Positions 1-14,178 of a stretch of DNA of 40,000 bases are shown one piece after another (the first letter of the stretch is position 1; the number at the start of each line of letters is the position of its first letter). The notes under the pieces were generated by a model. The model worked only from the letters and a program-made list of their open reading frames with translations, had not been told where the DNA came from and did no database searches. A program made the translations under genes and the position numbers. The DNA lies in the NCBI RefSeq assembly GCF_005871205.1, contig NZ_SWKM01000014.1, positions 1-40,000 of the forward strand, in the 5' to 3' direction. The DNA comes from Marinobacter alexandrii. GTDB lineage: Bacteria; Pseudomonadota; Gammaproteobacteria; Pseudomonadales; Oleiphilaceae.

Positions 1-45
1 GTAGGGCAGAACTCAATAATTAACCTAGAAGAAATATCTGGCCCC

Positions 46-129
46 ACATAACCAGGCCAGTCACGGCGACGCCTACTACATTGCGGCTTCGCCTCCATTT
101 CGTAGCCGCGCATGCTGGCAGGCGTTAGC
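46..129 (+). other. attC recombination site (family A)
   Basis: CATAACCAGGCCAGTCACGGCGAC...GCGCATGCTGGCAGGCGTTAGC. TAAC box at 49-52, GTTAGC core at 124-129. Confidence 0.8.
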
Positions 130-143
130 ACTTAAGGAGCTTC

Positions 144-587
144 ATGGAGCAGCTTCAGAAAATCGATTCACTTGGGCTCACCGACAAGTACTACGATCTT
201 TGCAGCGAATACCCATTGAGAGTCGGTAGTCCCATTGAAAAGATGCCCTCGCGGGAAGTATTAAAGGCCGCAGATGGAAGAGTCGGTATTCAAAAGTTAA
301 AGGGCCCTGGAACTTGCTATGAGGTTCAAGATGTACCTGATTCTATTCTTTTGAGGTTCATCGTACAAAGCCGAACACGGGTTGAGACGCACTTGGAAGT
401 CCGGGGTCTGAAATTGGAGCACGTGTCCAGTTTCGCCACCCTGTGTTTAGCCGCTAGAGAGGCTGCTGGCAAAGAAAGGCCAGCCCCTCCGTATCCTCGA
501 CCTGAGGCGCACTCTTTGAGTGAGTTGATTGAGGTATTTACTAAACTGCGAGATCTGGCGCTGGAAATTGAAAGGTGTGCACAGTGA
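144..587 (+). CDS. hypothetical cassette protein (147 aa)
   Basis: AAGGAG at 134-139 precedes the ATG by 4 nt. It is the only long ORF in this cassette and an attC follows. Confidence 0.6.
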   Translation: MEQLQKIDSLGLTDKYYDLCSEYPLRVGSPIEKMPSREVLKAADGRVGIQKLKGPGTCYEVQDVPDSILLRFIVQSRTRVETHLEVRGLKLEHVSSFATLCLAAREAAGKERPAPPYPRPEAHSLSELIEVFTKLRDLALEIERCAQ

Positions 588-591
588 CAGG

Positions 592-680
592 TGCTAACCA
601 AGCGGTCAACCGGACACCAAAAGCGTACCGCTTTTGGTTCCCTCCGCTGCGCTCCGGCGCCGGTTACCATCAGCGTTAAT
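592..680 (+). other. attC recombination site (unique type)
   Basis: GCTAACCAAGCGGTCAACCGGAC...CATCAGCGTTAAT. GTTAAT core at 675-680. Confidence 0.75.
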
Positions 681-887
681 GGGCCAAGGCCTCGGAAGGA
701 TTCGGCAGTTAAGCAGGGAGTTGCTTTCAAATGTTCACCACCGTCCAGCTCGTCTCCCCGCAAAACACTGCAAAATCCTTAAGTTTCGTGTTCTGGTTCC
801 TCGCGCCATGGGCTAGTGTGAGTGCAAGCTATTTTGGAGTAGGCATTCGCGTTGGGATGCCAGGGATAAGCCGCCGGGTAACCGGCC
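676..887 (+). repeat. ORF-less cassette body, copy A (candidate structured RNA family)
   Basis: Begins TTAATGGGCCAAGGCCTCGG directly after the crossover G675. Aligns over its whole length with 1302-1513 and 3722-3933. No conserved ORF. Confidence 0.75.
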
Positions 888-969
888 ACTAACAAGGCCA
901 GGCACGGCGACGGCTTTTTCGTTGCGGCTCCGCCTCCACTACAAAGCCGCGCATGCTGGCGGCGTTAGC
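888..969 (+). other. attC recombination site (family A)
   Basis: ACTAACAAGGCCAGGCACGGCGAC...GCGCATGCTGGCGGCGTTAGC. Confidence 0.8.
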
Positions 970-989
970 ATGATAGAGGGATCCAAATT

Positions 990-1208
990 ATGCCGACAAT
1001 CAGAGTGTTTCCATTTACATACTACGATGCAGAGCAGGGCGTTCGCCGTGAAGGCGCAGGAATGTGTACCGAAGAAAGCATTCGAGGGATGCGGGAAAAA
1101 GATCCAACCAAAGATCATCAAGTCATTGAGTCGCGCTCAATCGAGATTCACGAGTCTGATCTGAGCGAGACAGGCAGATATTATCCGCCGCCTGCAGATC
1201 AGGATTAA
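990..1208 (+). CDS. hypothetical small cassette protein (72 aa)
   Basis: ATG lies 9 nt after AGAGGG. It starts just inside the cassette, unlike the competing ORF 922-1164, which starts inside the attC. Stop is in an ATTAACC box. Confidence 0.45.
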   Translation: MPTIRVFPFTYYDAEQGVRREGAGMCTEESIRGMREKDPTKDHQVIESRSIEIHESDLSETGRYYPPPADQD

Positions 1209-1221
1209 CCAAATAAAACGT

Positions 1222-1306
1222 GCTAACAAGCCGCTTAAGGTCGTTCCCGGCCTGGCGGCCGTCCACCGGACGTCCCTGACGGGCCGCCGCTTAGCTCAGC
1301 GTTAAT
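1222..1306 (+). other. attC recombination site (family B)
   Basis: GCTAACAAGCCGCTTAAGGTCGTTCCCGGCC...CCACCGGACG...GCCGCTTAGCTCAGCGTTAAT. Confidence 0.8.
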
Positions 1307-1513
1307 GGCCAAGGCCTCGGAAGGATTCAGCCAGTAAAGCAGGGAGTGGCTTTCAAATGTTTACCACCGTCCAACTCGTCTCCCCGCAAAACACTGCAAA
1401 ATCTGAGAGCTTCGTGTTCTGGTTTCTCGCGCCATGGGCTAGGGTGAGTGAAAGCTGCATTGCAGAGGGCATTCGGATTTGGGTGCCAAGGATAAACCGC
1501 CGGGCAACCGGCC
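1302..1513 (+). repeat. ORF-less cassette body, copy B (candidate structured RNA family)
   Basis: 13 differences from copy C by hand alignment over about 222 nt. Hairpins at 1468-1487 and 1499-1512 (GCAA tetraloop). Confidence 0.75.
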
Positions 1514-1595
1514 ATTAACAAGTGCAGGCACGGCGACGCCCATTACATTGCGCCTTCGGCTCCATTTCATGGGCGCGCATGCTGCAAGCGTTATG
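1514..1595 (+). other. attC recombination site (family A)
   Basis: ATTAACAAGTGCAGGCACGGCGAC...GCGCATGCTGCAAGCGTTATG. Confidence 0.8.
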
Positions 1596-1916
1596 AAGAA
1601 AAATAGCAGAGTAAACCTCATATACATTGTCGGACTGATCCCGGTTGTCTTTGTGGTGGGGTTACTGCTTTTCCTGACCTTGGAAAACTTCCTATCAGGT
1701 CAAGCGACTTACGGCGATAAGTTCGGTAATGCCTATGAGGTGGAGGGGGTAGCTGCAGTAATAGTCAACTTGGGGATACTGGGGCTTGTGTGTTGGTTGG
1801 TCCTCTATATGGTTTATCTCTTCAAGCGATCCCCGGGACTCTTTCGTCTGCATTGCGGCGTTGGAGCAATTAGTAGCTTATGCATCGCGGCAGGCCTGTT
1901 TTATGGACTGTCATAA
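1593..1916 (+). CDS. small integral membrane protein (107 aa)
   Basis: Hydrophobic segments throughout. The ATG lies inside the GTTATG core of the upstream attC. The TAA stop is in the ATAAC box of the next attC. Confidence 0.55.
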   Translation: MKKNSRVNLIYIVGLIPVVFVVGLLLFLTLENFLSGQATYGDKFGNAYEVEGVAAVIVNLGILGLVCWLVLYMVYLFKRSPGLFRLHCGVGAISSLCIAAGLFYGLS

Positions 1917-1996
1917 CAAGCCGCTTAAGTTTGTTCCCGGCCTGTCGGCCGTCCACCGGACGCCACTGTCGTGGCGCCGCTTAGCTCAGCGTTAAT
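1912..1996 (+). other. attC recombination site (family B)
   Basis: 83 nt (1913-1995) identical to 4342-4424. Confidence 0.85.
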
Positions 1997-2017
1997 AGAA
2001 CTCAAGGACCAGGCATC

Positions 2018-2500
2018 GTGAGATTTGAACACATTCTCTTCGCATTTCTCTGCATCCTCGGGGCGGAGGCGTTCGCCTGTGACCCTGCCTCGACGGAGTA
2101 CGGAATCCCCTCTAACGTTAAATCATGCCAGTCCGACTTTAGAAAAATTCATGATCGCCTGGATGAATTTCAGGTCAATCTTACTGATAAAAAAACAGGT
2201 TTGATCGTCAAATTGAGTTCATACCTCGAGGAAAATGCAGATAGGGAAATCGAATGCACGATTCTCGTGACGGGCTGGCTCCCCGGAGAGCTCTGGAAGG
2301 AACAACCGACCAGCTTCATCATGCTTGAGGGAGATTTCAGTAGGTATCTTCGAGTTGCTGATGAGAATGTGCCCGAAAGCTTTAAAAAAATGTTGTACGA
2401 AACTGCAGCGACGAATTTAGCAAAGTTAAAGAGTTTCATTGGAGAGCTCGTCAGCAAAGAACTCAAGCCTCGAGACTACGAAACTGGATCGTGCTCATGA
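2018..2500 (+). CDS. secreted hypothetical protein (160 aa, GTG start)
   Basis: N-terminal signal-like peptide MRFEHILFAFLCILGAEAFAC. AAGGA lies 9 nt upstream. Confidence 0.6.
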   Translation: MRFEHILFAFLCILGAEAFACDPASTEYGIPSNVKSCQSDFRKIHDRLDEFQVNLTDKKTGLIVKLSSYLEENADREIECTILVTGWLPGELWKEQPTSFIMLEGDFSRYLRVADENVPESFKKMLYETAATNLAKLKSFIGELVSKELKPRDYETGSCS

Positions 2501-2510
2501 GGCTAAGTCT

Positions 2511-2593
2511 ATTAACAAGTTGTTGTAGTTCGTTCCGGCCTGCGGCCTCCACCGGACGCCCCTGTCGGGGCGCCGCTAAACAAAAGCGTTATA
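2511..2593 (+). other. attC recombination site (family B)
   Basis: ATTAACAAGTTGTTGTAGTTCGTTCCGGCC...CCACCGGACGCCCCTGTCGGGGCGCC...AGCGTTATA. Confidence 0.8.
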
Positions 2594-2612
2594 AATCAGG
2601 GAGTAGCCATCA

Positions 2613-3026
2613 ATGGAGTGGCGCAAGGACGATTACCTAATCACTGACGATAATTCCAAGGTGCAACTGGATATCGTCCACCGCTTGCTTGCGGCAACCT
2701 ATTGGGGTGACCGCCGTCCCCGAGAAACCGTAGAGCGCATGGTTGCTGGCTCCATCTGCTTCAGTCTTTACCGTGGTGCCACGCAGATTGGTTTTGGGCG
2801 TGCAGTCACCGATAGTGCTACGTTTACCTGGGTTGCGGACATTGTGGTTGAGCCGGAGTTTCGGGGCGCTGGCCTGGGACAGTGGATCATGGAATGTTTG
2901 GTTTCGCACCCTGGCATAACGGGAACTCAAATGGTGTTGCAAACACGCGATGCTCAGGGGTTGTACGAGAAGTTTGGCTTCTCTAGAAATAGTGCTCTCA
3001 TGAGCACCAAAGCCACTGATTTATAA
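2613..3026 (+). CDS. GNAT family N-acetyltransferase
   Basis: Acetyl-CoA motif-A-like segment VVEPEFRGAGLGQWIMECL. The 137 aa size is typical. Stop in the TATAAC box. Confidence 0.8.
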   Translation: MEWRKDDYLITDDNSKVQLDIVHRLLAATYWGDRRPRETVERMVAGSICFSLYRGATQIGFGRAVTDSATFTWVADIVVEPEFRGAGLGQWIMECLVSHPGITGTQMVLQTRDAQGLYEKFGFSRNSALMSTKATDL

Positions 3027-3097
3027 CAAGGCGCATCAGTACGCGGCCTGCGGCCGCCGGACGCCACTGTCGTGGCGCCGCTGTGCTCGGCGTTACT
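3022..3097 (+). other. attC recombination site (family B-related)
   Basis: TATAACAAGGCGC...CCGGACGCCACTGTCGTGGCGCCGCTGTGCTCGGCGTTACT. Confidence 0.75.
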
Positions 3098-3109
3098 GGG
3101 AAGGAGCCC

Positions 3110-3655
3110 ATGAATCAGAATCTTGCGGATGAGCTGTTCACGATGATGACCGAAGACCAGCGGTTGTTGCAGCAACTCTTCGATTCCGGAGAACTGCCAT
3201 TGGACTCTTATCATCCCCGGATGAAAGCCCTGCATGAGCAGAATGCTTCTCGCCTGAAAGAGATTATTGGTGCGCACGGTTGGCCCAGCGTTTCGTTAGT
3301 TGGGGAAGAGACTGCCAAAGCCGCATGGCTGGTCGTTCAGCATTCTGTTTCAGATCCTGAGTTCATGGGCAAGTGTGTCTCCCTGCTAGAAGATGCCGCC
3401 GCGAGAGAGGATGTGGCGGGCTGGCAGTTGGCATTCCTCAAGGATCGGGTGCGCACTCTATCCGGCGAGCCTCAATACTACGGTACCCAGTTTGATACTG
3501 ATGAAAAAGGTTGGCCAACACCGTTTCCTATTGAGGATTCTGCTACGGTTAATGAACGCCGTGCGCGTCTTGGGCTTAACTCCATCGAGGAACGCCAGGA
3601 ACAAATGACTGAGCAGGAGCGGAAGCGCCGTGCCAATGTCGAACAAACCAGTTAA
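3110..3655 (+). CDS. hypothetical cassette protein (181 aa)
   Basis: GGAAGGAG precedes ATG 3110. The upstream part of the tracked ORF (from 3083) lies inside the attC. Stop in the GTTAAC box. Confidence 0.65.
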   Translation: MNQNLADELFTMMTEDQRLLQQLFDSGELPLDSYHPRMKALHEQNASRLKEIIGAHGWPSVSLVGEETAKAAWLVVQHSVSDPEFMGKCVSLLEDAAAREDVAGWQLAFLKDRVRTLSGEPQYYGTQFDTDEKGWPTPFPIEDSATVNERRARLGLNSIEERQEQMTEQERKRRANVEQTS

Positions 3656-3726
3656 CAAAACGCGGCACTCGGACGCCCTTGTCTCCGCTTCGCTGCGTCA
3701 AGGTCGCCGGTGCGCTCTGCGTTAAT
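3651..3726 (+). other. attC recombination site (unique type)
   Basis: GTTAACAAAACGCGGCACTCGGACGCCC...GGTGCGCTCTGCGTTAAT. Confidence 0.75.
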
Positions 3727-3933
3727 GGCCAAGGCCTCGGAAGGATTCAGGCAGTAAAGCAGGGAGTGGCTTTCAAATGTTTACCACCGTCCAATTCGTC
3801 TCCCCGCAAAACACTGCAAAATCTGGAAGCTTCGTGTTCTGGTTCCTCGCGCCATGGGCTAGGGTTGGTGCAAGCTGAATTGCAGAGGGCATTCAGATTT
3901 GGGTGCCAGGGATCAACCGCCGGGTAACCGGCC
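3722..3933 (+). repeat. ORF-less cassette body, copy C (candidate structured RNA family)
   Basis: Aligns end to end with copy B. Hairpin at 3919-3932 has a GUAA tetraloop where copy B has GCAA. Confidence 0.75.
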
Positions 3934-3991
3934 ATTAACAAGTGCGGTCAAGGGACGCTCCTTTCGTCGCGCCCCTGCCGCTGGCGTTATA
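3934..3991 (+). other. attC recombination site (short, 58 bp)
   Basis: ATTAACAAGTGCGGTCAAGGGACGC...GCCGCTGGCGTTATA. Confidence 0.7.
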
Positions 3992-4018
3992 TTTCTTAAA
4001 CCTCAATCAAGGAAGATC

Positions 4019-4345
4019 ATGCGAATATCTACATTACCCCTAATCGTTCTCTGCCTGTTCATGGGCTTCACCTTTTGGGTTATGGCAGGCGCAGAACAGT
4101 CGCTTCTGGCTTTCGGTGCCCAGCTCATGTCCAGCCCTGACACCGCTCAGGTCGTCGTTGATCTCTACATTCTGGCCGCGCTGGCTTGTGTTTGGATGTA
4201 CCAAGACGCCAAAAGCCGTGGCAAAGGTTTGGGCTATCTCATCCCATTCTTCGTCGTAACAGCGGTGTTTGTATCTGCTGGGCCGCTGCTATATTTGGTG
4301 CTGCGTGGCGGGCGAGAGCCGGAAGCCGAAGCCAGCAAAATATAA
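4019..4345 (+). CDS. DUF2834-like small membrane protein (108 aa)
   Basis: AAGGAAGATCATG start context. Three hydrophobic helices. About 88 percent identical by eye to the product of 23717-24046. Family name is from memory. Confidence 0.7.
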   Translation: MRISTLPLIVLCLFMGFTFWVMAGAEQSLLAFGAQLMSSPDTAQVVVDLYILAALACVWMYQDAKSRGKGLGYLIPFFVVTAVFVSAGPLLYLVLRGGREPEAEASKI

Positions 4346-4425
4346 CAAGCCGCTTAAGTTTGTTCCCGGCCTGTCGGCCGTCCACCGGACGCCACTGTCG
4401 TGGCGCCGCTTAGCTCAGCGTTAAA
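4341..4425 (+). other. attC recombination site (family B)
   Basis: Identical over 83 nt to the attC at 1912-1996. Confidence 0.85.
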
Positions 4426-4439
4426 TTTCTAGAGGCAGT

Positions 4440-4967
4440 ATGAAATATTTTCGTTATTTTTTGATCGCTATCCTTGCTGGTGCAGGGTTTTCTCTTGGTA
4501 TTTTATTCGTCTTCTCGTACGCCTTGCCCCATTTTGAAAGCGAGTATCTTGACCCACACAATGCTACAAACGATATGTTTGAGGAAAGAATTAATGAAGT
4601 GGAGTCGAGCATCGGAATGAGTTGCAAGCAACTCCACCGTGAAGCCTACGAATTTGCGATCGACGATATCGGAAACATCATCGACGCAGGCCTGCAAGGG
4701 CGAGATTGGATAAAAGAGATTAGCCCAGATCAAAAACGCTATATCGACGAGGTTACTGAACAACTCTACCAATGTATGCTTTTGGAGCGGCCGGCAGAGC
4801 AATACCTTCAATTGCAATGGCCTGAGTTTTCGGAGTTACAAAGAACATATTCAGCACTCAAAACTTTTTCAACGTCATATGGTGATGGTGAAGCCACTGC
4901 AGAAAAGCTTAAACCTCAGGCACTGGAACGAATGCAGTTCCACTATCAAAATTTAACAAGGCCATGA
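4440..4967 (+). CDS. membrane-anchored hypothetical protein (175 aa)
   Basis: AGAGG lies 4 nt before the ATG. N-terminal TM helix YFLIAILAGAGFSLGILFVF. The stop lies a few nt inside the attC. Confidence 0.6.
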   Translation: MKYFRYFLIAILAGAGFSLGILFVFSYALPHFESEYLDPHNATNDMFEERINEVESSIGMSCKQLHREAYEFAIDDIGNIIDAGLQGRDWIKEISPDQKRYIDEVTEQLYQCMLLERPAEQYLQLQWPEFSELQRTYSALKTFSTSYGDGEATAEKLKPQALERMQFHYQNLTRP

Positions 4968-5033
4968 AGGTTGTTCCGGGCCGATGGCCCTCCACCGGAC
5001 GCCCTTGTCAGGGCGCCGCTTATGGCTGGCGTT
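4952..5033 (+). other. attC recombination site (family B), R' core interrupted by an IS
   Basis: TTTAACAAGGCCATGAAGGTTGTTCCGGGCC...GCGCCGCTTATGGCTGGCGTT, then the IS. The core resumes as GTTACAC at 6865. Confidence 0.75.
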
Positions 5034-6864
5034 GAGGCTGTAGAAAAACCCCGAAATCCCCCCTCGGGTTTGATAGGATCAGGCAAACAGACAAGGAGTC
5101 GTCGGAATGCCCCGTTTCAAGCATTACAATTACGATCAGGACGCCATGGTCGTGATCAACTACCAGGAACAGCTTCAGCCCGGCACCTTTGAACACGCGG
5201 TGCACTATCTCATCGAACACAAGCTGGACCTGTCAGTGTTCCACCCCAAGTACCGCAACGAAGACACTGGTCGGCTTGCCTACGATCCGGCGATCCTGCT
5301 GAAGATCATCCTGTTCGCCTATTCCAAGGGCATCAAGACCAGCCGCGAGATGCAGTGGTGCTGCGAGACCAACATCACCTTCAAGGCCCTGTCCTGCGAT
5401 ACCGTTCCCCACTTCACCACCCTGGCGAAGTTCGTCAGCAGCCATGCGGATGAGATTGAGGCGCTGTTCGAGCAGGTGCTTTTGGTGTGCCACGAACAGG
5501 GGTTACTGGGGAACGAGCTCTTCGCCATCGACGGCTGCAAGATGCCCTCGAATGCCGCCAAGGAATGGTCCGGCACGTTCAAGGAACTGGAAGAGAAACG
5601 GAAGAAGTTGCGACGACTGATCCGCCACCACTTGAAGGAGCACCATGAGCGGGACGAGGCGGAAACCGAAGCCGAACTGGACCGGAACATCCGCCGGGCA
5701 AAGACGGTTCTCTCCCTGGACGAATCCCTGAAGAAAGTGGACCGCTTCCTAAAGACGAACCGCCCAAGGATGGGCCGGGGGAAGCGGAACAAGGAAGTGA
5801 AGAGCAACATCACCGATAACGAAAGCGCCAAGATGACGACCAGCAAGGGCACGATCCAGGGCTACAACGGTGTGGCCACGGTGGACAAGAAACACCAGAT
5901 CATTATTGATGCCCAGGCCTTTGGCGAAGGCCAGGAACACCACACCTTGCAACCGGTGCTGGAAACGGTCGAAGCCCGATTCAGGAAACTGGGTATCGCC
6001 GATAACATCTACCAGCAGGGTACGGTCATCACCGCCGACACCGGCTTTTCCAACGAAGCCAACATGAAATACCTGCACGAACGACAGATCAACGGCTACG
6101 TACCGGACAACCGATTCCGCAGCCGAGACCCGAAGTTCCAGAATCAGAAAGGCAAGTACGGCAAGCGCCATCAGAGCCAGCTGAACACGGGCTGGAAAGA
6201 CATCATTCCGGCCAGTGAGTTTCAGTTCGATCCGGTCAACCTGACCTGCATCTGCCCAGCGGGCGAAAGCCTGAAATACCATGCAACCCGCACGGACCCA
6301 AACGGCCAAAGCCGGGCCTACTTCCAGGGACGTCTGATGCAGTGCCGGAACTGTCCAAAGAAACATCAGTGCATGCAGAACCCGGAGGCTGCCAACCACC
6401 GGAAGGGTAAAGGCCGACAGGTTTCGTTCACCCTCGAGAACAAGCGCCTGCCTAATTACACCGACTGGATGAAGCACCGCGTCGACAGCCAAAAGGGCAA
6501 AGAGATTTATAGTCACCGGATGTCGGTGGTGGAGCCGGTGTTCGGCAACATTGGCACCAACAAACGGCTGAACCGGTTCAGCTTGCGGGGCAGGAAAAAG
6601 GTCCAGGGCCAGTGGCAGCTATACTGCCTGGTGCACAATATTGAGAAACTGGCGAATTATGGGCGGTTAGCCGCGTGATACAGGGATCAGAAGACTGGAA
6701 ATGTGGCTCTTGGGTGCCAGCAATACCGGCACTGAAAGCGGCAAGGAGTCGAATTGATGCGCTGAGCACTGAAATTGGAATCATCGGTCAGTTGATGGCC
6801 GCGACAAATAATTTTAAGAACCAGGCGCTGGGAACGGCTCGAAATCGGGTTTTTCTACAGCCTC
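5034..6864 (+). mobile_element. IS1182-family insertion sequence (1831 bp)
   Basis: Perfect 18-bp terminal inverted repeats GAGGCTGTAGAAAAACCC (5034-5051 and 6847-6864). GTT flanks both ends (5031-5033 and 6865-6867). Single transposase ORF. Confidence 0.85.
5107..6678 (+). CDS. IS1182-family DDE transposase (523 aa)
   Basis: N-terminal YSKGIKTSREMQWCCETNITFKALS... and C-terminal RFSLRGRKKVQGQWQLYCLVHNIEKL match the IS1182/IS5-like transposases I remember. Confidence 0.85.
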   Translation: MPRFKHYNYDQDAMVVINYQEQLQPGTFEHAVHYLIEHKLDLSVFHPKYRNEDTGRLAYDPAILLKIILFAYSKGIKTSREMQWCCETNITFKALSCDTVPHFTTLAKFVSSHADEIEALFEQVLLVCHEQGLLGNELFAIDGCKMPSNAAKEWSGTFKELEEKRKKLRRLIRHHLKEHHERDEAETEAELDRNIRRAKTVLSLDESLKKVDRFLKTNRPRMGRGKRNKEVKSNITDNESAKMTTSKGTIQGYNGVATVDKKHQIIIDAQAFGEGQEHHTLQPVLETVEARFRKLGIADNIYQQGTVITADTGFSNEANMKYLHERQINGYVPDNRFRSRDPKFQNQKGKYGKRHQSQLNTGWKDIIPASEFQFDPVNLTCICPAGESLKYHATRTDPNGQSRAYFQGRLMQCRNCPKKHQCMQNPEAANHRKGKGRQVSFTLENKRLPNYTDWMKHRVDSQKGKEIYSHRMSVVEPVFGNIGTNKRLNRFSLRGRKKVQGQWQLYCLVHNIEKLANYGRLAA

Positions 6865-6874
6865 GTTACACCGC

Positions 6875-7291
6875 ATGAATACAACTGAGTTCGTCGTTTA
6901 CTATCTAATAGCGGTATCAGCGATCTTTTTGCTGATTTCACTGGTGCGTTTTTCTAAGCTGAAACCATTGTTTGGGGCCCGACAAGCCTTGGCATTGGTT
7001 GAGCAGAATCATCGCGCTCGTCTGGACCGGTTGGTTCAGTTGGGAATCAGAATTGAAGGCAGGGGCCCTATACACTTTATCGCGCCTCCACCCTACACTC
7101 CCGACGAAGAATTGGAGGTTGGTGCCGAGATGGAAGTTTGGGTTTCAGATGAACTTCCCGGTGTGGTCTTGAACACAAAGCCTACCTTCTCGTCATTGGT
7201 GGGTAGGGCATTGTATCCAGCGGTCTGTGTCGCGTTCGTTCTCCTGATGCCCATCTTCTTCATTGTGCAGGGCCATTTCGATGGGGTGTAA
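6875..7291 (+). CDS. membrane hypothetical protein (138 aa)
   Basis: ATG lies 7 nt after the restored GTTACAC core. TM helices at both ends. TAA stop in the GTAAC box. Confidence 0.55.
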   Translation: MNTTEFVVYYLIAVSAIFLLISLVRFSKLKPLFGARQALALVEQNHRARLDRLVQLGIRIEGRGPIHFIAPPPYTPDEELEVGAEMEVWVSDELPGVVLNTKPTFSSLVGRALYPAVCVAFVLLMPIFFIVQGHFDGV

Positions 7292-7368
7292 CAAGGCCAG
7301 TCACGGCGACGCCTACTTCATTGCGGCTTCGCCTCCACTTCGTAGCCGCGCATGCTGGCGGCGTTATA
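7287..7368 (+). other. attC recombination site (family A)
   Basis: TGTAACAAGGCCAGTCACGGCGAC...GCGCATGCTGGCGGCGTTATA. Confidence 0.8.
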
Positions 7369-7398
7369 GCAATTAGGTGTCCACAAAAAGGATAAGGG

Positions 7399-8349
7399 AT
7401 GCAGGAAAAACCGAATTATTTTGTTCGTGCAATGATCGTTGCATTTGTTTTGGCGCTTTTCATAATGGCTTTTTTGAGCTTTTATTTGGGCAACCCGAGG
7501 TACCAGATAACTGCAGGGGTTATTACAGTTCTGGGTTTTATTGTTATCTTGGTTTTGTCGGAGTCTTTTAACAACCTAAGTATTGGGAAAGTCTTGTCTC
7601 TGAGTCGAAAGGTTGAGGAAAAAGAAAAAGAGAAGAATCAGGTAAAAGCGGAAAATGGTGAGCTCAGGCAAGAGCTCTTCAAAATTGTATCCAATATCCA
7701 GCAATCTCAAGTAAATAATACCTATAACGCTCCATCAGATGAGTGGCTAAAGCTCCTTGGGGTGGTCAAGGCAAAAGACTCTGAGAAAGAAGAAGAACAA
7801 GAAGAGCAAAAAGAAGCCCAAAGAGCAATGGCGTATGTGGCTGAAAGAGAGAAGGCACGGGAGGAATCGCGTGCTCGAATGAAATTGCGACGTGCTGCTG
7901 AGAATATTGGTATTCAAAAGTATGCTGAGACCTTCAATGTTCCGCAGTCCGAAATAATGCAAGGTGCCGAATTTTCACAAGCCTTCGATGAAATTGACCC
8001 TATTATGAATAGGCGAATAATATTTGATGGCTATTATAAAGATCCAAGCCAAGAGCGTTTCATTGAAGTAAGATCTAAAGGCTCTGTGTCACCTATTTTT
8101 TATGATCGCTTGTACGTAATGCTAAACAAAATTCATCTCTATAGGCGAGCTAAGGCTATATATGCTGAGCTAGTTCTTGTATTGCTTGATATAGAAGGGG
8201 AAGATACGGATAGGCCGTGGGGTAACGACCGATTTATTGATTACTTCCAGTCTGCTATTTCCAATAAGCTACTAAAAATTGAAACAATAAAAGTATCGAA
8301 GGAAGAGCTTTCAAATTATGAAGAAAATGGGCAGCAAAGCCTGCTATAA
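7399..8349 (+). CDS. 2-TM, coiled-coil protein with a C-terminal globular domain (316 aa), function unknown
   Basis: AAGGA lies 5-6 nt upstream. Two N-terminal hydrophobic helices, a Lys/Glu-rich coiled-coil middle, and a C-terminal segment IIFDGYYKD...FIEVRSKG. Confidence 0.65.
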   Translation: MQEKPNYFVRAMIVAFVLALFIMAFLSFYLGNPRYQITAGVITVLGFIVILVLSESFNNLSIGKVLSLSRKVEEKEKEKNQVKAENGELRQELFKIVSNIQQSQVNNTYNAPSDEWLKLLGVVKAKDSEKEEEQEEQKEAQRAMAYVAEREKAREESRARMKLRRAAENIGIQKYAETFNVPQSEIMQGAEFSQAFDEIDPIMNRRIIFDGYYKDPSQERFIEVRSKGSVSPIFYDRLYVMLNKIHLYRRAKAIYAELVLVLLDIEGEDTDRPWGNDRFIDYFQSAISNKLLKIETIKVSKEELSNYEENGQQSLL

Positions 8350-8420
8350 CCAAGGGCTGCAGCGGACCGATTTTCCGGCGTGGTGCGCCTCCAAATCGGC
8401 CGCTGAGCCCAGGCGTTAGG
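8345..8420 (+). other. attC recombination site (unique type)
   Basis: TATAACCAAGGGCTGCAGCGGACCGATTT...AAATCGGCCGCTGAGCCCAGGCGTTAGG. Confidence 0.75.
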
Positions 8421-8450
8421 CCTATAGGCCGAAAAGGTTGAGTTGAATTT

Positions 8451-9557
8451 ATGGCCTCAAATAAAAATCAGCATTTCGTGCCGAGGTGCTACCTCCGGGA
8501 GTTCACTCATGACTCTGAAAACAAGGCCATAAATTTATTTAACATAGATAACAAGAAGTTCATTTCAAACGCACCAGTAAAGAGCCAGTGCTCCAAGGAC
8601 TATTTTTACGGTCAGGATGAAAAGCTAGAGGCGGCTATTCAATTTTTGGAGGGCTCTTATGCCACTATATTGAGGGAAATCCTCGAGGGTCCCAGAGAAC
8701 TTAGTGACGACCAAAAAATTGTGATTAGACGTTTCTGGCTATTCCAATATTTGAGGACTGAAGCGGCATCGAAGCGATCAGTCGAAATGTCTAATGACTT
8801 TACTAAAACAGCAGGTGTAAGTCCTGAGGAGTTTAAATTTGAGATAAAAGAGGCTGTACAAACGGCGATGCACACCTTCGCTGAAAATATGGACATCGTA
8901 GACGATTTAAAGATTTGCTTTATTTTAAACAAGACAAAGGTTCCATTTTTAACTTCCGACAATCCTGCGATTTTAACTAATAGATGGCACTTAAATGACG
9001 CGAGAACAAAATTTAAGTCGTTTGGGCTGAACGCTTGTGGCGCCATGCTTTTTCTACCACTTACTCCAGAAATTATGTGTGTAGGTTATGATGGTGATGT
9101 ATATAGTATTCCACAGAAAAATGGCTGGGCTTCCATCTCCAAAGAGAGCGATGTTAAGGCATTTAATCAACATCAATTTTTGGAATGTAGGGCAAACATT
9201 TTCTTCAAGAATTCAGAAGACTGTAGCTTTGTAGAGGAGTCTTTTGGAGGTGTGATCGACAATCGACCATCTGAAAGGCACCGTATTCACTACGCCGTTT
9301 TTGACTATACTGATGGACAGCACTCGCGCTATAAAGTTGTAGACTCTAGCGAAGCAGGTGAGCATGAGCGAGCTATTGTTCACAGTGAAACAGTGCATTC
9401 AAGGCCATTGTCATGGCCTAGTGTCATTCGATGGAGAAATAGTGGAACTGTTTACACGAACGATACTGGGCTCGGCTACGTTCGGAAAGGACAAATTCTT
9501 CCTGAATACGAAGGGTTCTATAAAGAGCCGGTAAAATTAAGAAAATCGCGGGCCTGA
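8451..9557 (+). CDS. DUF4238 domain protein (368 aa)
   Basis: The N-terminus NQHFVPRCYLREF matches the H-x-V-P-x-x-Y-L-x-x-F signature I associate with DUF4238. TGA stop in the R'' position. Confidence 0.75.
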   Translation: MASNKNQHFVPRCYLREFTHDSENKAINLFNIDNKKFISNAPVKSQCSKDYFYGQDEKLEAAIQFLEGSYATILREILEGPRELSDDQKIVIRRFWLFQYLRTEAASKRSVEMSNDFTKTAGVSPEEFKFEIKEAVQTAMHTFAENMDIVDDLKICFILNKTKVPFLTSDNPAILTNRWHLNDARTKFKSFGLNACGAMLFLPLTPEIMCVGYDGDVYSIPQKNGWASISKESDVKAFNQHQFLECRANIFFKNSEDCSFVEESFGGVIDNRPSERHRIHYAVFDYTDGQHSRYKVVDSSEAGEHERAIVHSETVHSRPLSWPSVIRWRNSGTVYTNDTGLGYVRKGQILPEYEGFYKEPVKLRKSRA

Positions 9558-9634
9558 CAAGTGCAGGCACGGCGACGCCCATTATATTGCGCCTGTGGCT
9601 CCATTCGATGGGCGCGCATGCTGCAAACGTTAGG
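9553..9634 (+). other. attC recombination site (family A, R'' reads TGAC)
   Basis: CCTGACAAGTGCAGGCACGGCGAC...GCGCATGCTGCAAACGTTAGG. Confidence 0.75.
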
Positions 9635-9647
9635 AGTTACAAGACTC

Positions 9648-10334
9648 GTGAACTTCTTAATCACACCTCCCTCTTCCCATTTTGATGGTGGCATCGGTAT
9701 TACAGCATGCAACTTCAGAAATGCTGCAGAAACCTTGCGGGAGCATGGTTCATCTCTAGATGGTGTGCTACCTCTGTGTTATCTCTATCGCCATGCCGTA
9801 GAGCTTTTTCTAAAATCAGTAACGTTTATTCTCCATAAAAAATACGCGATCGAGTTCGGTAGTGGGTTCTCCCTTGATAAGCCTGGAATAAAAGTTCGCG
9901 ATAAATGGGTAGCTATGGAGAATACCCACAACTTATCGGACCTTTATGCATACTTCGAAGTACTTTTTGATCAATGCGAGACGTTACTGCCTTCAACAAC
10001 GAGGTGGGAACTGCCGGCAGATATAAGGTCAAAAATTGATTTGGTTAGCGGAACTGATCCTAAGAGCACCTTCTTCAGGTACCCAAAGTCTGGAAGCCAA
10101 CAACAAGATAAAAAGAAATCAAAGATTCAAAAAACCGACTTCCAAAAAGCGTTTGATAACCCAGAAAAGCCTGCAAGGCTTGTTGTTATGCTTGATGAGA
10201 ACGACAATTTAATAGAGTCATACGATCTGGATGCTGACACTTTGAGCAAGGTCCAAAGCGCTCTGGCCGACCTTTGCGAGTTTCTCTACGGAGTGCATGC
10301 AGCATTCAGAGGAGAATTGACTAAGGGCTCCTAA
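9648..10334 (+). CDS. HEPN-like domain protein (about 228 aa; start uncertain)
   Basis: GTG 9648 lies 11 nt after AGGAG. The tracked ORF start 9561 is inside the attC. Helix patterns YLYRHAVELFLKSV and NTHNLSDLYAYF resemble the PF05168-type HEPN fold. Confidence 0.5.
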   Translation: MNFLITPPSSHFDGGIGITACNFRNAAETLREHGSSLDGVLPLCYLYRHAVELFLKSVTFILHKKYAIEFGSGFSLDKPGIKVRDKWVAMENTHNLSDLYAYFEVLFDQCETLLPSTTRWELPADIRSKIDLVSGTDPKSTFFRYPKSGSQQQDKKKSKIQKTDFQKAFDNPEKPARLVVMLDENDNLIESYDLDADTLSKVQSALADLCEFLYGVHAAFRGELTKGS

Positions 10335-10433
10335 CCAGTCAATCCAGTTCGTTCCGGCCCTGTAAGGGCCTCCACCGGACGGCCTTTTCTTCGCTTCGCT
10401 ACGCAAAGGCCGCCGCTAATTATCGGCGTTAGG
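10330..10433 (+). other. attC recombination site (family B, long 104 bp)
   Basis: CCTAACCAGTCAATCCAGTTCGTTCCGGCC...CCACCGGACGGCC...GCCGCTAATTATCGGCGTTAGG. Confidence 0.8.
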
Positions 10434-10447
10434 CATTTGGAGGAATT

Positions 10448-10585
10448 TTGAGCAGGCTCTATACCTACATCGTCAAGGTCGATTCAGGATTAGCGCCAAA
10501 TCCATTTAGCGGTCTGTACTCCGAACCACCAAGGAAGCGCTGTGCAACCAGGAGATTGGATCGCTGGATTTTCTCCCAAGAGTGA
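10448..10585 (+). pseudogene. possible displaced N-terminal fragment of the downstream gene (frameshift candidate)
   Basis: TTG lies after GGAGG and opens MSRLYTYIVKVDSGLAPNPFSG..., which reads like the conserved N-terminus of the family encoded by 10542-11063 but in another frame. Confidence 0.35.
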
Positions 10586-11063
10586 TGGCTACCGGTTCAT
10601 CTATGCGATGAAGGTAGATGAGCGCATCCACATGAATGACTATTTCCACGATCCTCGGTTTGAATCCAAGAAGCCAATAATGAGCGGGGGATGGAAAGAA
10701 AGATGCGGCGACAACTTTTATCGGCAAGATGGCCAAGGGGCGTGGCTTCAGCTGGCCAATCCCTTTCATGGGGGAATGCTGGATCAAGACACCCGTGTCC
10801 CATTCGTGTTTGTTGGTGAAGAGTTTTGGTATTTGGGAAGAGCTCGTTCAGACGTACCAAAGGAATTCTTAGCTATGATCGGAGGTCGGGGCGCAAGGGT
10901 AAACCATCCTGCAGGTTTACCGGAAAGCTTTATGTGGTGGGTCCGCAAGAACTTTAAGCCAGGTATCACCGCGGATCCCTTGGATGCAGAGGCCAAGAGT
11001 TGCACGCAATCAGGGGCCGCGCTATCCAGCACTTGCGAGCTGAGTTCATGCAACAATGCCTAA
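10542..11063 (+). CDS. conserved hypothetical, Nmad2-like (family name from memory); possibly N-terminally truncated by a frameshift
   Basis: The GDWIAGFSPKS...FIYAMKV...DPRF...CGDNFY pattern matches that family. GTG start has no RBS. TAA stop in the CTAACC box. Confidence 0.55.
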   Translation: MQPGDWIAGFSPKSDGYRFIYAMKVDERIHMNDYFHDPRFESKKPIMSGGWKERCGDNFYRQDGQGAWLQLANPFHGGMLDQDTRVPFVFVGEEFWYLGRARSDVPKEFLAMIGGRGARVNHPAGLPESFMWWVRKNFKPGITADPLDAEAKSCTQSGAALSSTCELSSCNNA

Positions 11064-11133
11064 CCAACCCATGCACCGGATGCCAAAACCTCCGCTTCGC
11101 TGCGGTTTTGTCACCGGTGATGGCGGGCGTTAG
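11059..11133 (+). other. attC recombination site (unique type)
   Basis: CCTAACCAACCCATGCACCGGATGCCAAAACC...GGTTTTGTCACCGGTGATGGCGGGCGTTAGG. Confidence 0.8.
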
Positions 11134-11139
11134 GCTCGT

Positions 11140-11577
11140 ATGGGACTTGAGAGTATCAGACCAGTTTTCAGTGGGTTGCTCGGCGGTGTAATAGCCATTT
11201 GGGTTGGTAATTACATGGCTCGAAAACTGCCGAGATCTTGGTCGGGCATATCGACCGAGGCTTTGGTGAGAAAGCATAAGGCAGCCATTTATTTGTCTAA
11301 TTCGGCTTTCATCATTGGGATATTCTTTGGGTTGTTTCTCTACATTCAGGGATATTTTGAGAGGAATGATTGGCGAGGAATGGGGATCGGTTTCGGTGTG
11401 AGTTGCCTTGGGCCAACCTTGATACTACTGACTTGGTCGATAATTCGGGGGCATAGAATCACAGAATCGTTTTTTGCCTACGGCGTTGCCCAAAAAATGC
11501 CTCTGTGGCTGCTAATGCCCTTACTCGGTTCGGGAATTGCTGCGCTAATTGCGAGCTTGAACAGTATCTTAGCCTAA
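11140..11577 (+). CDS. integral membrane protein (145 aa)
   Basis: Four predicted hydrophobic helices. ATG lies 5 nt after the AGG of the GTTAGG core. TAA stop in the CCTAAC box. Confidence 0.6.
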   Translation: MGLESIRPVFSGLLGGVIAIWVGNYMARKLPRSWSGISTEALVRKHKAAIYLSNSAFIIGIFFGLFLYIQGYFERNDWRGMGIGFGVSCLGPTLILLTWSIIRGHRITESFFAYGVAQKMPLWLLMPLLGSGIAALIASLNSILA

Positions 11578-11650
11578 CAAATTGTTGTAGTTCGTTCCGG
11601 CCGTTGGACTCCACCGGACGCCCTTTTCAGGGCGCCGCTTAGCTCAGCGT
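11573..11650 (+). other. attC recombination site (family B), R' core split by a group II intron
   Basis: CCTAACAAATTGTTGTAGTTCGTTCCGGCC...GCGCCGCTTAGCTCAGCGT, then the intron. The core is completed by TATG at 13521. Confidence 0.8.
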
Positions 11651-13520
11651 GTGTGCCGGGCATGGCACAGAACTAGGGAGGTGAAAGTCCTCCTGCCAGG
11701 TGTTCGCAGAGCCGAAGGCTAGGAGAAGGGCAAGGGCGTCATCGCGAGGTGGGGTCTCCGGAGCGCCGGCCGGAAGTAAGCCCAATCCAAAGCGGCGGGG
11801 CGACGAACAGGAACCCGATACGAGGTGTGGTACATCCGGGGCGAGCGGGCACGTGACCGCGAAGCCCTCCGTCTGCGACCGGGATGTGCTTTATAAATCG
11901 GGTCGGGCCGCGTTCGGATTCATGCCGTGAAAGCTCTGTGCCTTACCCCGGGAGGTCTGCCGCGTGTGGACGGAGCCACTGAGAGACGAGCGATCGCCTC
12001 TGATCGCGTGGCAGAAATCAGCCGAGGGCATAGTAGGTTCGCCCGTGAACCGAAGGCCCGAACAGAGACAGGAGTCGAGATTCCGTGCAGGGTAACGGGA
12101 TGGCATCCGCAAAGCAGCTAGCGCTGCCCCTGGAGTTTCCAGGGGATGAACCCGTTGCCGGAAAGCGGGAAAACTTGCACTCCGTTCAATCCTCACCGTG
12201 GATGGCGCGTGTATTGAGTAGGGACAACCTCAATCGCGCCCTGAAACAGGTTCGACGTAACAAGGGAGCGCCGGGTATCGACGGTATGACCGTGGATGCA
12301 TTGCCGGATCATCTGCGCCAACACTGGCCCGAGATCCGGCAACAACTGCTCCAGCAGACCTACCGACCGAAACCGGTGCGGCGGGTGACCATCCCCAAAG
12401 CCAACGGCGGTTCCCGCCCCCTGGGCATCCCGACGGTGCTGGATCGCTTCATCCAGCAAGCCATCGCTCAGGTTATCCAGCAGGATTGGGACCCCCGCTT
12501 CCACCCACACAGTTATGGCTTCCGCCCGGGGCGCTCCGCCCATCAGGCGGTCCGGTACGGACAACGTTGCGCCCGGGAAGGCCGTAACTGGGTGGTGGAT
12601 CTGGACCTGGAAGCCTTCTTTGACCGGGTAAATCACGATCGCCTGATGGCCCGGCTGAAACGGCATACGCCGGACAGGCCGCTGCTCAGGTTGATCAACC
12701 GGTACCTGAAGGCAGGTGTACAGATCGATCACCGCAAAGCCCCGACACCAGAAGGCGTACCGCAAGGCGGGCCACTGTCTCCGGTGTTGGCGAATGTGGT
12801 GCTGGACGAACTGGACTGGGAGCTGGAGCGGCGCAACCTTTGTTTCGCCCGCTACGCGGATGATTGTCAGATCTACGTTGGCAGTCACCGGGCAGGTGAG
12901 CGAGTGATGGTGAGTCTGACGCGCTTTATCGAGGACTCGCTGAGGCTCACAGTGAATACACGAAAGAGCGCAGTGGATCGGCCCTGGAAGCGAAGCTTCC
13001 TGGGCTTCACCCTCAGCCGGAAAGGGCAGCGACTGAAAGTGGCTAGCAAAGCTATCACCAAGCTGAAAACCCAGATCCGGATACTGAGCCGCCGAACACG
13101 GGGCCACTCTCTGGCCCAGGTGAACGCAGACCTGAAAGAGACCCTGCTTGGTTGGAAAGCGTACTTCGATGAAGCCGAAGTACTGAGCCCGCTGCGGGAC
13201 CTGGACAAGTGGATACGGCGGAGAATGAGATGTTACGTGTGGAAGCAATGGGGCCGAAGGGGGTATCGTGAGCTGAGAAAGCGGGGTGTCTCAGTCGAGC
13301 TGGCCTGGAACACCGCGAAATCAGCCCATGGACCGTGGCGCCTGAGCCGATCACCGGCGCTGGCGCAGGCACTGCCGGCCCGGGTCTTCCGGAGCTATGG
13401 ATTGCCAAAATTGGCAGTGCGGTAACGGGTTGAACCAAGTCACTGAATCGCCGTGGTACGTGATCCGTATGCCCGGTGATGTGGGAGGAGGGGCATCGTG
13501 AGGTGCCTCCCTATCCCGAT
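11651..13520 (+). mobile_element. Group II intron, class C (attC-targeting type) candidate, 1870 bp
   Basis: 5' end GTGTG and 3' end ...CCCGAT. The terminal hairpin (from about 13483) has a bulged A 7 nt before the 3' end (DVI-like). The internal RT/maturase ORF has YADD and no endonuclease domain. Removing the intron restores GCGT|TATG. Confidence 0.8.
12085..13425 (+). CDS. group II intron reverse transcriptase/maturase (446 aa)
   Basis: RT motifs are present, including FARYADDCQIY. There is a maturase X-like C-terminus and no HNH domain. The start could be ATG 12100. Confidence 0.9.
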   Translation: MQGNGMASAKQLALPLEFPGDEPVAGKRENLHSVQSSPWMARVLSRDNLNRALKQVRRNKGAPGIDGMTVDALPDHLRQHWPEIRQQLLQQTYRPKPVRRVTIPKANGGSRPLGIPTVLDRFIQQAIAQVIQQDWDPRFHPHSYGFRPGRSAHQAVRYGQRCAREGRNWVVDLDLEAFFDRVNHDRLMARLKRHTPDRPLLRLINRYLKAGVQIDHRKAPTPEGVPQGGPLSPVLANVVLDELDWELERRNLCFARYADDCQIYVGSHRAGERVMVSLTRFIEDSLRLTVNTRKSAVDRPWKRSFLGFTLSRKGQRLKVASKAITKLKTQIRILSRRTRGHSLAQVNADLKETLLGWKAYFDEAEVLSPLRDLDKWIRRRMRCYVWKQWGRRGYRELRKRGVSVELAWNTAKSAHGPWRLSRSPALAQALPARVFRSYGLPKLAVR

Positions 13521-13528
13521 TATGTGCT

Positions 13529-13557
13529 TTGACACCTGATACGTTACAGGGTACATT
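13529..13557 (+). promoter_or_regulatory. sigma70-type promoter of the higBA cassette
   Basis: TTGACA (13529-13534), a 17-nt spacer, then TACATT (13552-13557). Only 6 nt separate the -10 from the higB ATG. Confidence 0.55.
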
Positions 13558-13563
13558 CAAGGA

Positions 13564-13842
13564 ATGATTCGAAGCTTCAAACACAAGGGCTTGGCAAAAT
13601 TTTTCAAGTCCGGCAGCACTGCAGGGATTCAGGCCGCTCACGCGAAGAGGCTTCAGCTCATTCTCGGTAGATTGAATGCAGCGGCGAATGCCAAAGATAT
13701 GGACTTACCCGGTCTTCGTTTGCACGAACTCTCTGGCACCCGAGCCGGAATCTGGTCAGTGACAGTCAGTGGTAACTGGCGAGTGACCTTCCGGTTCGAA
13801 GACGGAGATGCCGAGATTGTAAACTACGAGGATTATCACTGA
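13564..13842 (+). CDS. higB: HigB-type toxin (RelE/ParE superfamily, killer protein)
   Basis: [14 protein letters not shown]...[21 protein letters not shown] is typical of HigB. The toxin gene lies upstream of the antitoxin gene. Confidence 0.85.
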
Positions 13843-13852
13843 GGTACCGCCA

Positions 13853-14140
13853 ATGTTAATGCACAACCCTCCGCATCCGGGTGAAGTACTGCGAGAGCTT
13901 TGTCTTGAGCCCCTTGGTCTCTCTGTCACGGCGGCGGCAGAGGCATTGGGCGTTAGCCGCAAAACGCTGAGTGCCGTGTTGAATGGCAAGGCCGGTATCA
14001 GTCCCGAAATGGCGATCCGGCTCTCTATTGCTTTCGATACTTCAGCAGAAAGCTGGCTGAATCAGCAGTCCCAATATGAACTCTGGCATGCAGAACAACA
14101 TCGCAAAGAGCTCAATGTAAAGAAGCTTGTTGCAGCCTGA
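13853..14140 (+). CDS. higA: HigA-type antitoxin (XRE-family HTH)
   Basis: HPGEVLRE...[37 protein letters not shown] is an HTH motif, 10 nt downstream of higB. Confidence 0.85.
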
Positions 14141-14145
14141 AGTGG

Positions 14146-14167
14146 CACATAACCAAGCCATGCACCG
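14146..14167 (+). other. attC remnant (R''/L'' half only)
   Basis: CACATAACCAAGCCATGCACCG matches the left arm of the attC at 11059 (CCTAACCAACCCATGCACCG). No right arm or GTT core follows. Confidence 0.5.
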
Positions 14168-14178
14168 AGGAGAATGAA

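Follow-up and report, generated by a model that had tools for sequence, protein, structure and literature searches.

Large chromosomal integrons contain many cassettes without a recognisable gene. A cassette array of Marinobacter alexandrii raises the question of what such a unit does, as one short element recurs four times within it. We asked whether this element is a small gene, an RNA, a promoter, a cassette that serves its own spread or a remnant of a former gene. Its pattern of conservation makes it improbable that a protein is what is conserved, and the four copies probably represent a regulatory or RNA element.

A mobile cassette family of Marinobacter and marine chromosomal integrons

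The window (the whole 40,000-nt stretch of contig NZ_SWKM01000014.1 that was analysed) begins with an integron cassette array on the plus strand (1-16480), in which short ORFs, each with a TAACAA end, are followed by an imperfect inverted repeat and GTTA. The array includes an insertion sequence (transposase at 5107-6678) and a group II intron (Rfam D1-D4 matches at 11753-12058; reverse transcriptase/maturase at 12085-13425). It ends at ~16480, ahead of a chromosomal histidine-kinase gene (16616-17974). No integrase or intI gene was found within the window; in two related loci (L015 and L018) the array adjoins an integrase of the IntI type, accompanied by a LexA box.

Repeat finding across the window returned a family (D2) at 661-823, 1287-1449, 3707-3869 and 16318-16480, the copies of which align over a common body of ~220 nt. 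This agrees with the preliminary description of this DNA, which had reported three full cassettes and a truncated copy. Copy A is a complete plus-strand cassette (676-964) with its body at 676-886 and an attC extending from R'' CACTAAC (887-893) to the R' G at 964; database protein P0002 and a metagenome copy at locus L061 are both identical to it. Copy B, also complete and on the plus strand (1302-1590), has its body at 1302-1512 and an attC from R'' CATTAAC (1513-1519) to the R' G at 1590. The third complete cassette, copy C (3722-3986, plus strand), carries a short attC of a different type, with R'' CATTAAC at 3933-3939 and the R' G at 3986. Copy D (16333 to ~16480, plus strand) is a 5' fragment equivalent to positions 1-148 of the family model and forms the last unit of the array, without an attC. 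Its homology ends at ~16480 and its 3' part was not found anywhere in the window.

Each copy starts with TTAAT(G)GCC directly 3' of the crossover G, i.e. the G of GTT (G|TTAATGG at 675/676, 1301/1302, 3721/3722 and 16332/16333). All four boundaries had been so described, and the same 5' boundary was present in 34/34 aligned relatives. The attC core sites of copies A, B and C read CAYTAAC ... GTTAGCA, GTTATGA and GTTATAT, respectively, and belong to two or three attC types. A start at the core-site G, an own attC (copies A-C, as previously claimed, with R'' boxes and R' G positions now located) and flanking genes that differ among loci together mark these units as cassettes, 265-289 bp long in the window.

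A protein search with the four window peptides returned nine clusters. Eight of them are exactly 53 aa long, 72-91% identical and labelled hypothetical protein (NCBI and JGI sources), one being identical to copy A, and the contigs behind the clusters are cassette arrays. At the DNA level, a pattern scan in which each species was represented by one genome detected 16 loci, 13 of them in Marinobacter and the others on single MAG contigs labelled Erythrobacter, Halioglobus and Rhodopila; a second pattern gave 41 marine metagenome loci. A profile search of all loci then yielded 57 distinct full-length copies plus fragments, always at cassette boundaries. The two loci analysed from the contig of Marinobacter sp. 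SS21 contain nine matches of any length; three copies stand in a row in L027, tandem pairs occur in L018, L029 and L082, and in L015 the element occupies the first position of the array, directly at attI beside intI. The body is joined to six attC types, with an apparent attC length of 52-95 nt among relatives, and is itself more conserved than its attC. No match to the element was found by blastn in a plasmid collection. The family is also present in cultivable Marinobacter strains; M. salarius R9SW1 (CP007152) is one carrier.

The unit was found between different neighbours across loci, as the preliminary description had argued from the window. The elements are independent cassette insertions, mobile, multi-copy and widespread in Marinobacter and marine chromosomal integrons.

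The annotated small reading frame

The preliminary description had called these cassettes ORF-less, stating that the plus-strand frames lacked starts or were broken by indels in copy A. This does not hold. Copy B carries a 53-codon ORF on the plus strand (1357-1518; MFTTVQLVSPQNTAKSESFVFWFLAPWARVSESCIAEGIRIWVPRINRRATGH) with a Shine-Dalgarno-like GGGAG 10 nt 5' of its ATG and a TAA stop inside attC R''. The same 53 codons are present in copy A (731-892, plus strand), with an intact ATG and the stop in the R'' TAA, and the indels of this copy are located upstream of the ATG. In copy C the ORF is shortened to 33 codons (3777-3878, plus strand) by a TGC to TGA change at codon 34, and two metagenome copies share the identical nonsense change; in copy D the frame continues into unrelated sequence.

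A small protein or micropeptide cassette, perhaps with only the first ~30 residues functional and with about half of the copies being decaying pseudogenes, is a reading that these data address directly, and we consider it unlikely. The GGGAG ahead of the ATG, the eight clusters of exactly 53 aa and the position of the stop, which lies inside attC R'' in neighbouring coding cassettes as well, are what a coding cassette might look like. The integrity of the ORF across the family argues otherwise. It is intact in 30/57 copies and disrupted in 27/57, as against a neutral expectation of 27.2 intact copies, calculated from the substitution spectrum and the distance of each copy to the consensus. In the disrupted copies the start is replaced by ATT, ATA, ACG, TTT or AAG, stops occur at codons 11, 27, 29, 34, 40 and 42, or the frame is shifted. 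The start codon, with 12 parsimony steps, is among the most variable codons, and nine distinct copies of one subgroup have ATT in its place. The length changes in the aligned copies, read by eye, are 1-nt shifts.

When each variant was counted once, no synonymous excess was detected over the ORF (0.292 vs 0.266 expected, p = 0.24) or in codons 1-29 (p = 0.08). Distinct variants included 5 stops (5.7 expected) and were distributed 64/56/70 over the three codon positions, and no other frame surpassed the plus-strand ORF frame in synonymous excess after correction. Counted as events on the tree, codons 30-53 behave neutrally, with a synonymous fraction of 0.31 vs 0.31 and 7 stop events where 3.2 were expected.

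Codons 1-29 are the part of the ORF that speaks for the micropeptide. Pairwise pN/pS is 0.55 overall and 0.37 in this segment, where tree events give a synonymous fraction of 0.42 vs 0.27 expected, 4 stops vs 9.4 expected and non-synonymous changes that are more conservative than expectation. Parsimony steps at codon positions 1/2/3 number 65/46/103, with a site-permutation p = 0.013 for codons 1-29, and the three-base signal is concentrated in codons 1-8 (site-permutation p = 0.002). Against this, synonymous sites are nearly invariant in codons 9-15 and 20-22. A profile search against 1.8 billion representative proteins returned only read-through ORFs over the same DNA family and no distant protein family, Pfam gave no match for the 53-aa ORF, and AlphaFold2 predicted a single helix at low confidence (pLDDT 64, pTM 0.27).

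The coding-like signal in codons 1-29 appears real but weak. In these alignments it could reflect translation of a leader, a peptide of ~30 aa or coding in the past, and on the same evidence it leaves the conservation of the element unexplained. The annotated small ORF seems largely incidental, and at most a leader.

The preliminary description had based its non-coding argument on the minus strand. The counts it gave are correct: there are exactly 13 differences between copies B and C, of which 10 lie in codons that change non-synonymously in the 64-codon minus-strand frame (1327-1521), and copy A has a stop in that frame. We rejected this frame as a gene and regard it as incidental, as neither tree events nor distinct variants show a synonymous excess and other copies contain stops. 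A 39-codon minus-strand ATG frame (MPSAMQLA...) was also set aside; its start is conserved, but it is stopped at codon 6 in 12/57 copies and at codon 34 in 21/57. A 69-aa minus-strand ORF in a distant relative (L084, see below) has no homologue in the protein database. The non-coding call had therefore been reached by overlooking a real plus-strand ORF, and is nevertheless consistent with the decay of that ORF at a neutral level. A conserved ORF under purifying selection in homologues had been named beforehand as an observation that would refute it; what the homologues hold is neutral-level disruption together with a weak coding signal confined to codons 1-29.

Nucleotide-level constraint and conserved hairpin potential

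Substitutions are unevenly spread along the element. Parsimony placed 593 steps on 224 columns with a variance/mean of 3.5, and 69 columns are invariant where a Poisson expectation gives 15.9. The invariant columns are clustered (lag-1 autocorrelation 0.26, equalled in 0/2000 permutations) and fall into conserved blocks, namely the cassette start, AGCAGGGAGT, TCTCCCCGCAAAACACTGCAAAATC, TTCGTGTTCTGGTTYCTCGCGCCATGGGCTAG, GTGCAAGCT, GGCATTC with GGGTGCC, and CCGGGTAACCGGCCATTAAC. The near-invariant blocks CAAAACACTGCAAAATC and TTCGTGTTCTGGTTYCTCGCGCCATGGGCTAG occupy 1388-1443 of copy B. The ORF is no more conserved than the 55-nt leader (2.66 vs 2.41 steps per column).

Two sets of more distant relatives bear on the nature of this constraint. 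A sister family (family 2; L059, L076 and L028) consists of longer cassettes that have only the 3' ~120 nt in common with the window family (family 1), including TTCGTGTTCTGGTTYCTCGCGCCATGGGCTAG. Its blocks are near-identical and its spacers differ by single bases, which places the blocks in other reading frames, and no frame is open in all of its copies. The distant relative L084/L085 follows a 346-aa gene and stands beside a degenerate attC; L084 is 72% identical over 89 nt ungapped, and its mismatches, 7/8/10 by phase, have no three-base periodicity. In both family 2 and L084 the flanks are unalignable while the blocks are kept. As the blocks persist in reading frames other than that of family 1, or show no three-base periodicity, we conclude that nucleotides are what is constrained, which also weighs against the micropeptide. 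Across the alignments the element is under nucleotide-level constraint, extending to the 5' leader, synonymous sites and the two hairpins that abut attC.

These two hairpins had been described from the window and are present where they had been placed; each occurs in copies A, B and C. The first is a 7-bp hairpin, GGCATTC-N6-GGGTGCC, at 1468-1487 of copy B (plus strand), and also at 842-861, at 3888-3907 and in family 2; its stem is conserved, with two U.G pairs on the plus strand, and its loop is variable (-9.9 kcal/mol, z = -3.0 on plus; -4.1 on minus). The second, a 5-bp hairpin GCCGG-GNRA-CCGGC directly 5' of attC R'' (1499-1512 of copy B, plus strand; also 873-886 and 3919-3932), has a predicted energy of -10.4 kcal/mol with z = -2.4 on plus. 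Its loops are GUAA, GCAA or GUGA, and one relative (L033) carries a compensatory CCAG/CTGG change in the stem. In both 3' hairpins stems are kept while loops change, one family-2 copy having a 6-nt loop, and matches to the hairpin patterns exceed chance (5 vs 0.82 expected and 3 vs 0.05 expected).

Further upstream, the invariant segments GCAGGGAG (1339-1346) and CTCCCCGC (1380-1387) could form a helix enclosing the start codon together with a variable loop of 33 nt. This GGGAG/CTCCC helix contains an A.C mismatch on the plus strand (-10.1 kcal/mol) and comprises 8 bp with one G.U on the minus strand (-17.6 kcal/mol). RNAalifold on 34 copies predicted R'/R'' pairing, GCAGGGAG/CUCCCCGC around the start codon and AACAC/GUGUU, together with two small helices in the central block, the 7-bp hairpin and the GNRA hairpin beside attC. 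Apart from the two 3' hairpins, these helices are lost in L084, as read by eye from the sequences.

Covariation was at the level of shuffled alignments. The RNAalifold covariation term was -0.4 kcal/mol with one compensatory pair among 39, and a pair-count score of 0.052 compared with 0.051 after shuffling (114/500 shuffles as high), at a low divergence that limits power, most copies of the family being 83-92% identical. Dinucleotide shuffles fold about as stably as the whole body (z = -0.8 for plus and minus alike). The consensus folding energy does stand out, with z = -4.2 on plus and -4.9 on minus, and the conserved blocks are mutually complementary; the null for this comparison was column shuffling within conservation classes, since the clustering of conserved columns could inflate a simpler alifold z. 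Strand preference is mixed, the two 3' hairpins favouring plus and the GGGAG/CTCCC helix favouring minus.

Of the claimed structured plus-strand RNA, the two 3' hairpins hold as conserved hairpin potential; covariation and the fold of the body lend the claim no support, and the strand signals are divided. A further stem that had been put forward (1405-1408/1423-1426) does not hold across the family. The change from A-U to G-C between copies B and C is real; some relatives break its pairs, their 5' columns varying while the 3' partner stays TTCC/TTTC (read off the alignment), and RNAalifold lends it no support. An apparent compensatory change in L076b was discounted as the product of a local duplication in that copy. 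Extended pairing of the 5' and 3' ends beyond R'/R'' looked promising between two family-2 copies and was rejected, being unsupported in family 1 and with four sequences too few to judge.

Hairpin potential, as computed from these alignments, is conserved, and on this footing we hypothesise that the element is a structured RNA.

Candidate roles and relation to known cassettes

Our preferred reading, offered tentatively and at somewhat less than even confidence, is that of a small mobile cassette family acting through its sense-strand RNA as a leader-, attenuator- or sRNA-like element. The cassette would be transcribed within the sense-strand array transcript and act through its RNA. The invariant GGGAG would pair with an equally invariant CUCCC located 33 nt further 3', so that the helix surrounds the start codon. 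A short leader of at most the first 8-29 codons would be translated, and the 7-bp and GNRA-capped hairpins would form just ahead of attC. Together these parts may constitute a cis-acting leader/attenuator-like or an sRNA-like element that affects how strongly array transcripts are expressed or how stable they are. We infer that RNA, made from the plus strand, is the active molecule, and likewise infer the role of the element.

A promoter cassette that drives its neighbours in a long, otherwise silent array is a doubtful alternative. Most of 29 gene-less cassettes tested from Vibrionaceae superintegrons act as sense-strand promoters, and their in-silico prediction is unreliable (Blanco et al. 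2024, PMC11014356); ORF-less Treponema cassettes also carry promoters, as relayed by a review (PMC8876359). The presence of several copies at scattered positions of an array would suit a function as internal promoters. A sigma-70 consensus scan of both strands found no site in any window copy, and sigma-54, sigma-E and sigma-32 motifs gave no convincing spacing in an informal inspection by eye. The element has a G+C content of about 0.53-0.56, like its surroundings, and is not AT-rich; its eight conserved blocks over 220 nt go far beyond what a promoter needs, and the Vibrio cassettes do not have comparable family-wide conservation. A promoter role keeps some probability because the promoters of gene-less Vibrio cassettes are unpredictable in silico.

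Other searches of the element returned little. A terminator scan made one weak terminator-like call, which is the GNRA hairpin on the minus strand of copy B. A tRNA/tmRNA scan found none, and antisense pairing with the intI/attI region was limited to chance matches of 12 nt or less. In line with the preliminary description, which had recognised no Rfam family, a scan of window 600-4100 gave no match at gathering or at E <= 10; on family 2 there were chance-level matches only.

A self-propagating, 'parasitic' cassette, whose inverted repeats fold in single-stranded DNA and raise its own excision or integration with no benefit to the host, seems very unlikely. The numerous and often tandem copies, the copy in first position at attI, the occurrence in several genera, the joining of the body to six attC types and the strand-symmetric complementarity of the blocks would all suit such a cassette. 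We know of no precedent for a self-propagating cassette of this sort. The best hairpin needs two G.U/G.T pairs on the top strand, not the recombining bottom strand, and extended pairing with attC is unsupported in family 1 on a by-eye reading of the variable 5' columns. Least probable of all is a functionless remnant of a once-coding cassette whose similarity reflects recent spread, since the neutral decay of the ORF, the weak periodicity in codons 1-8 as a possible trace of past coding, the truncated copies and the degenerate genes among gene-less Vibrio cassettes (PMC11014356) are outweighed by the strong, clustered rate heterogeneity (69 invariant columns vs 16 expected), by the same blocks in family 2 and L084 despite unalignable flanks, and by a body that is better conserved than its attC.

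Among known systems, the preferred reading of an RNA leader or attenuator comes close to the control of translation by short ORFs in integrons, as in ORF-11 of attI1 and the cmlA attenuator (review PMC8876359). Like the Marinobacter element, these leaders combine a short ORF and a good ribosome-binding site with a peptide sequence of little importance and stem-loops able to mask such a site. They control one fixed downstream gene, whereas the Marinobacter cassette is independently mobile and lies before unrelated cassettes, and in contrast to them it does not maintain its start codon and reading frame.

An sRNA-like role has a counterpart in sRNA-Xcc1 of Xanthomonas, a trans-acting sRNA carried on an integron cassette (Chen et al. 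2011, as cited in PMC8876359 and bioRxiv 10.1101/2025.06.18.660453). As far as these secondary accounts describe it, sRNA-Xcc1 is conserved across species, horizontally transferred and cassette-borne, and the Marinobacter element is similar to it as a candidate non-coding cassette function. By the same accounts sRNA-Xcc1 lies beside symE and is oriented against Pc, whereas the Marinobacter element fills its own cassette and its favoured strand, if any, is sense. As to likeness with sRNA-Xcc1, no Rfam match of any kind was obtained at E <= 10, and Rfam 15 presumably holds a model for it.

The gene-less cassettes of Vibrio and the ORF-less cassettes of Treponema (Tansirichaiya et al. 2019, as summarised in PMC8876359) are alike in being attC-bounded units of sedentary chromosomal integrons with unrelated coding neighbours. 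They measure 491-666 bp, and the Marinobacter cassettes are shorter. Unlike them, the Marinobacter family is not AT-rich, lacks a sigma-70-like site, and is large, conserved and multi-copy, with invariant blocks and a small ORF annotated in databases. Gene-less cassettes have been defined as having no ORF longer than 210 bp and no annotated gene (Blanco et al. 2024, PMC11014356). In the Marinobacter family the longest ORFs confined to the body are 162 bp (plus) and 195 bp (minus), within this limit, but the 53-aa ORF is named a hypothetical protein by NCBI and JGI.

We found no description of this family in Rfam or in the literature searched; it adds a well-delimited new family to the known class of gene-less or small-ORF integron cassettes. 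That it represents a new class of cassette-borne functional nucleic acid, either a structured sense RNA that modulates long arrays or a self-promoting 'parasitic' cassette, is a rather speculative proposition to which we give a minor share of our confidence. To our knowledge, the functions so far shown for gene-less cassettes are limited to promoter activity (Vibrio, Treponema) and one sRNA (Xanthomonas). The Marinobacter family offers a clean test case: it is short, abundant and easily aligned, and demonstrable constraint on its nucleotides contrasts with the decay of its annotated 'hypothetical protein'. A promoter function, if established, would carry the Vibrio result over to another genus. 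If it is an RNA regulator or a self-propagating cassette, a functional category would be added to integron biology, and many small 'hypothetical proteins' in cassette arrays would be mis-annotations. An array-modulating RNA or a parasitic cassette would also explain why a ~290-bp unit with a decaying ORF and many attC partners has been kept, multiplied and spread among integrons of the Marinobacter type.

Cassettes and mobile elements around the family

The cassette following copy B of the small-cassette family (copy B, 1302-1590 of the window) occupies positions 1591-1916 and carries an ORF (MKKNSRV...) whose ATG lies only 2 nt past the crossover point. This ORF therefore lacks a ribosome-binding site within its own cassette, and one, if present, would be located in the attC of copy B. 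The cassette following copy C (copy C, 3722-3986) spans 3986-4285 and has a second copy, 82% identical, at 23684-23983, approximately 7 kb past the point where the array appears to end. This duplication beyond the array end suggests a further cassette cluster at ~21.6-24.8 kb in the window, with chromosomal genes for a histidine kinase and an RNA methyltransferase between the clusters.

An insertion sequence (IS) transposase of 523 aa (5107-6678; domains DUF772, DDE_Tnp_1 and DDE_Tnp_1_6) is found in the array two cassettes further downstream than copy C. The order of family element, 108-aa gene, 195-aa gene and 523-aa transposase is repeated in L011, L013 and L014, all three of them contigs from metagenomes. 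Just upstream of the family element, L011 and L013 additionally carry an inserted member of the IS110 family. A group II intron is located further along the window array at 11753-13425, just after an attC-like repeat at ~11575-11652. Rfam matches to its domains D1-D4 were found at 11753-11941 and 11979-12058, followed by the reverse-transcriptase/maturase ORF of the intron (12085-13425), and the element appears to be a group IIC intron of the kind that targets attC sites.

At another locus with family members, L018, attI is followed directly by two identical tandem 424-bp cassettes (~1376-2160) and then by two copies of the studied family. No gene was called in either 424-bp cassette, and a perfect LexA box (CTGTATATATAAACAG) is present in both.

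Related and truncated elements

Longer cassettes of ~355-440 bp, forming a sister family, were found in L059 (303-574, 1-240, 3555-3737 and 1871-1970), L076 (1822-2092 and 7337-7594) and L028 (3918-4186). Only the 3' ~120 nt is common to the two families, the 5' module of the sister family being different, and no conserved ORF was found in the sister-family cassettes of these three loci. In one of the L059 copies, an IS has inserted at a CTAG in the most conserved block and splits the copy in two. A more distant relative, 72% identical to the family element over 89 nt, is present in L084 (1376-1500) and L085. It does not form a separate cassette: upstream of it, without an intervening attC, lies a 346-aa gene of unknown function, and a degenerate attC comes after it.

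Fragments from the 5' end of the studied family occur in two different genomes, at 16333-16480 of the window, where the fragment is the last array unit, and at 3287-3445 of L034. Their homology to full-length copies ends at different points, and the downstream flanks are unrelated.

Junctions between body and attC

Six different attC types, about 52-95 nt in length, are joined to the conserved body among the 57 distinct full-length copies (in 40, 9, 4, 2, 1 and 1 copies). Homology among the copies ends exactly at the R'' box, the attC box abutting the body. Integrase crossover at R' would not by itself produce six attC types with a homology break at R''.
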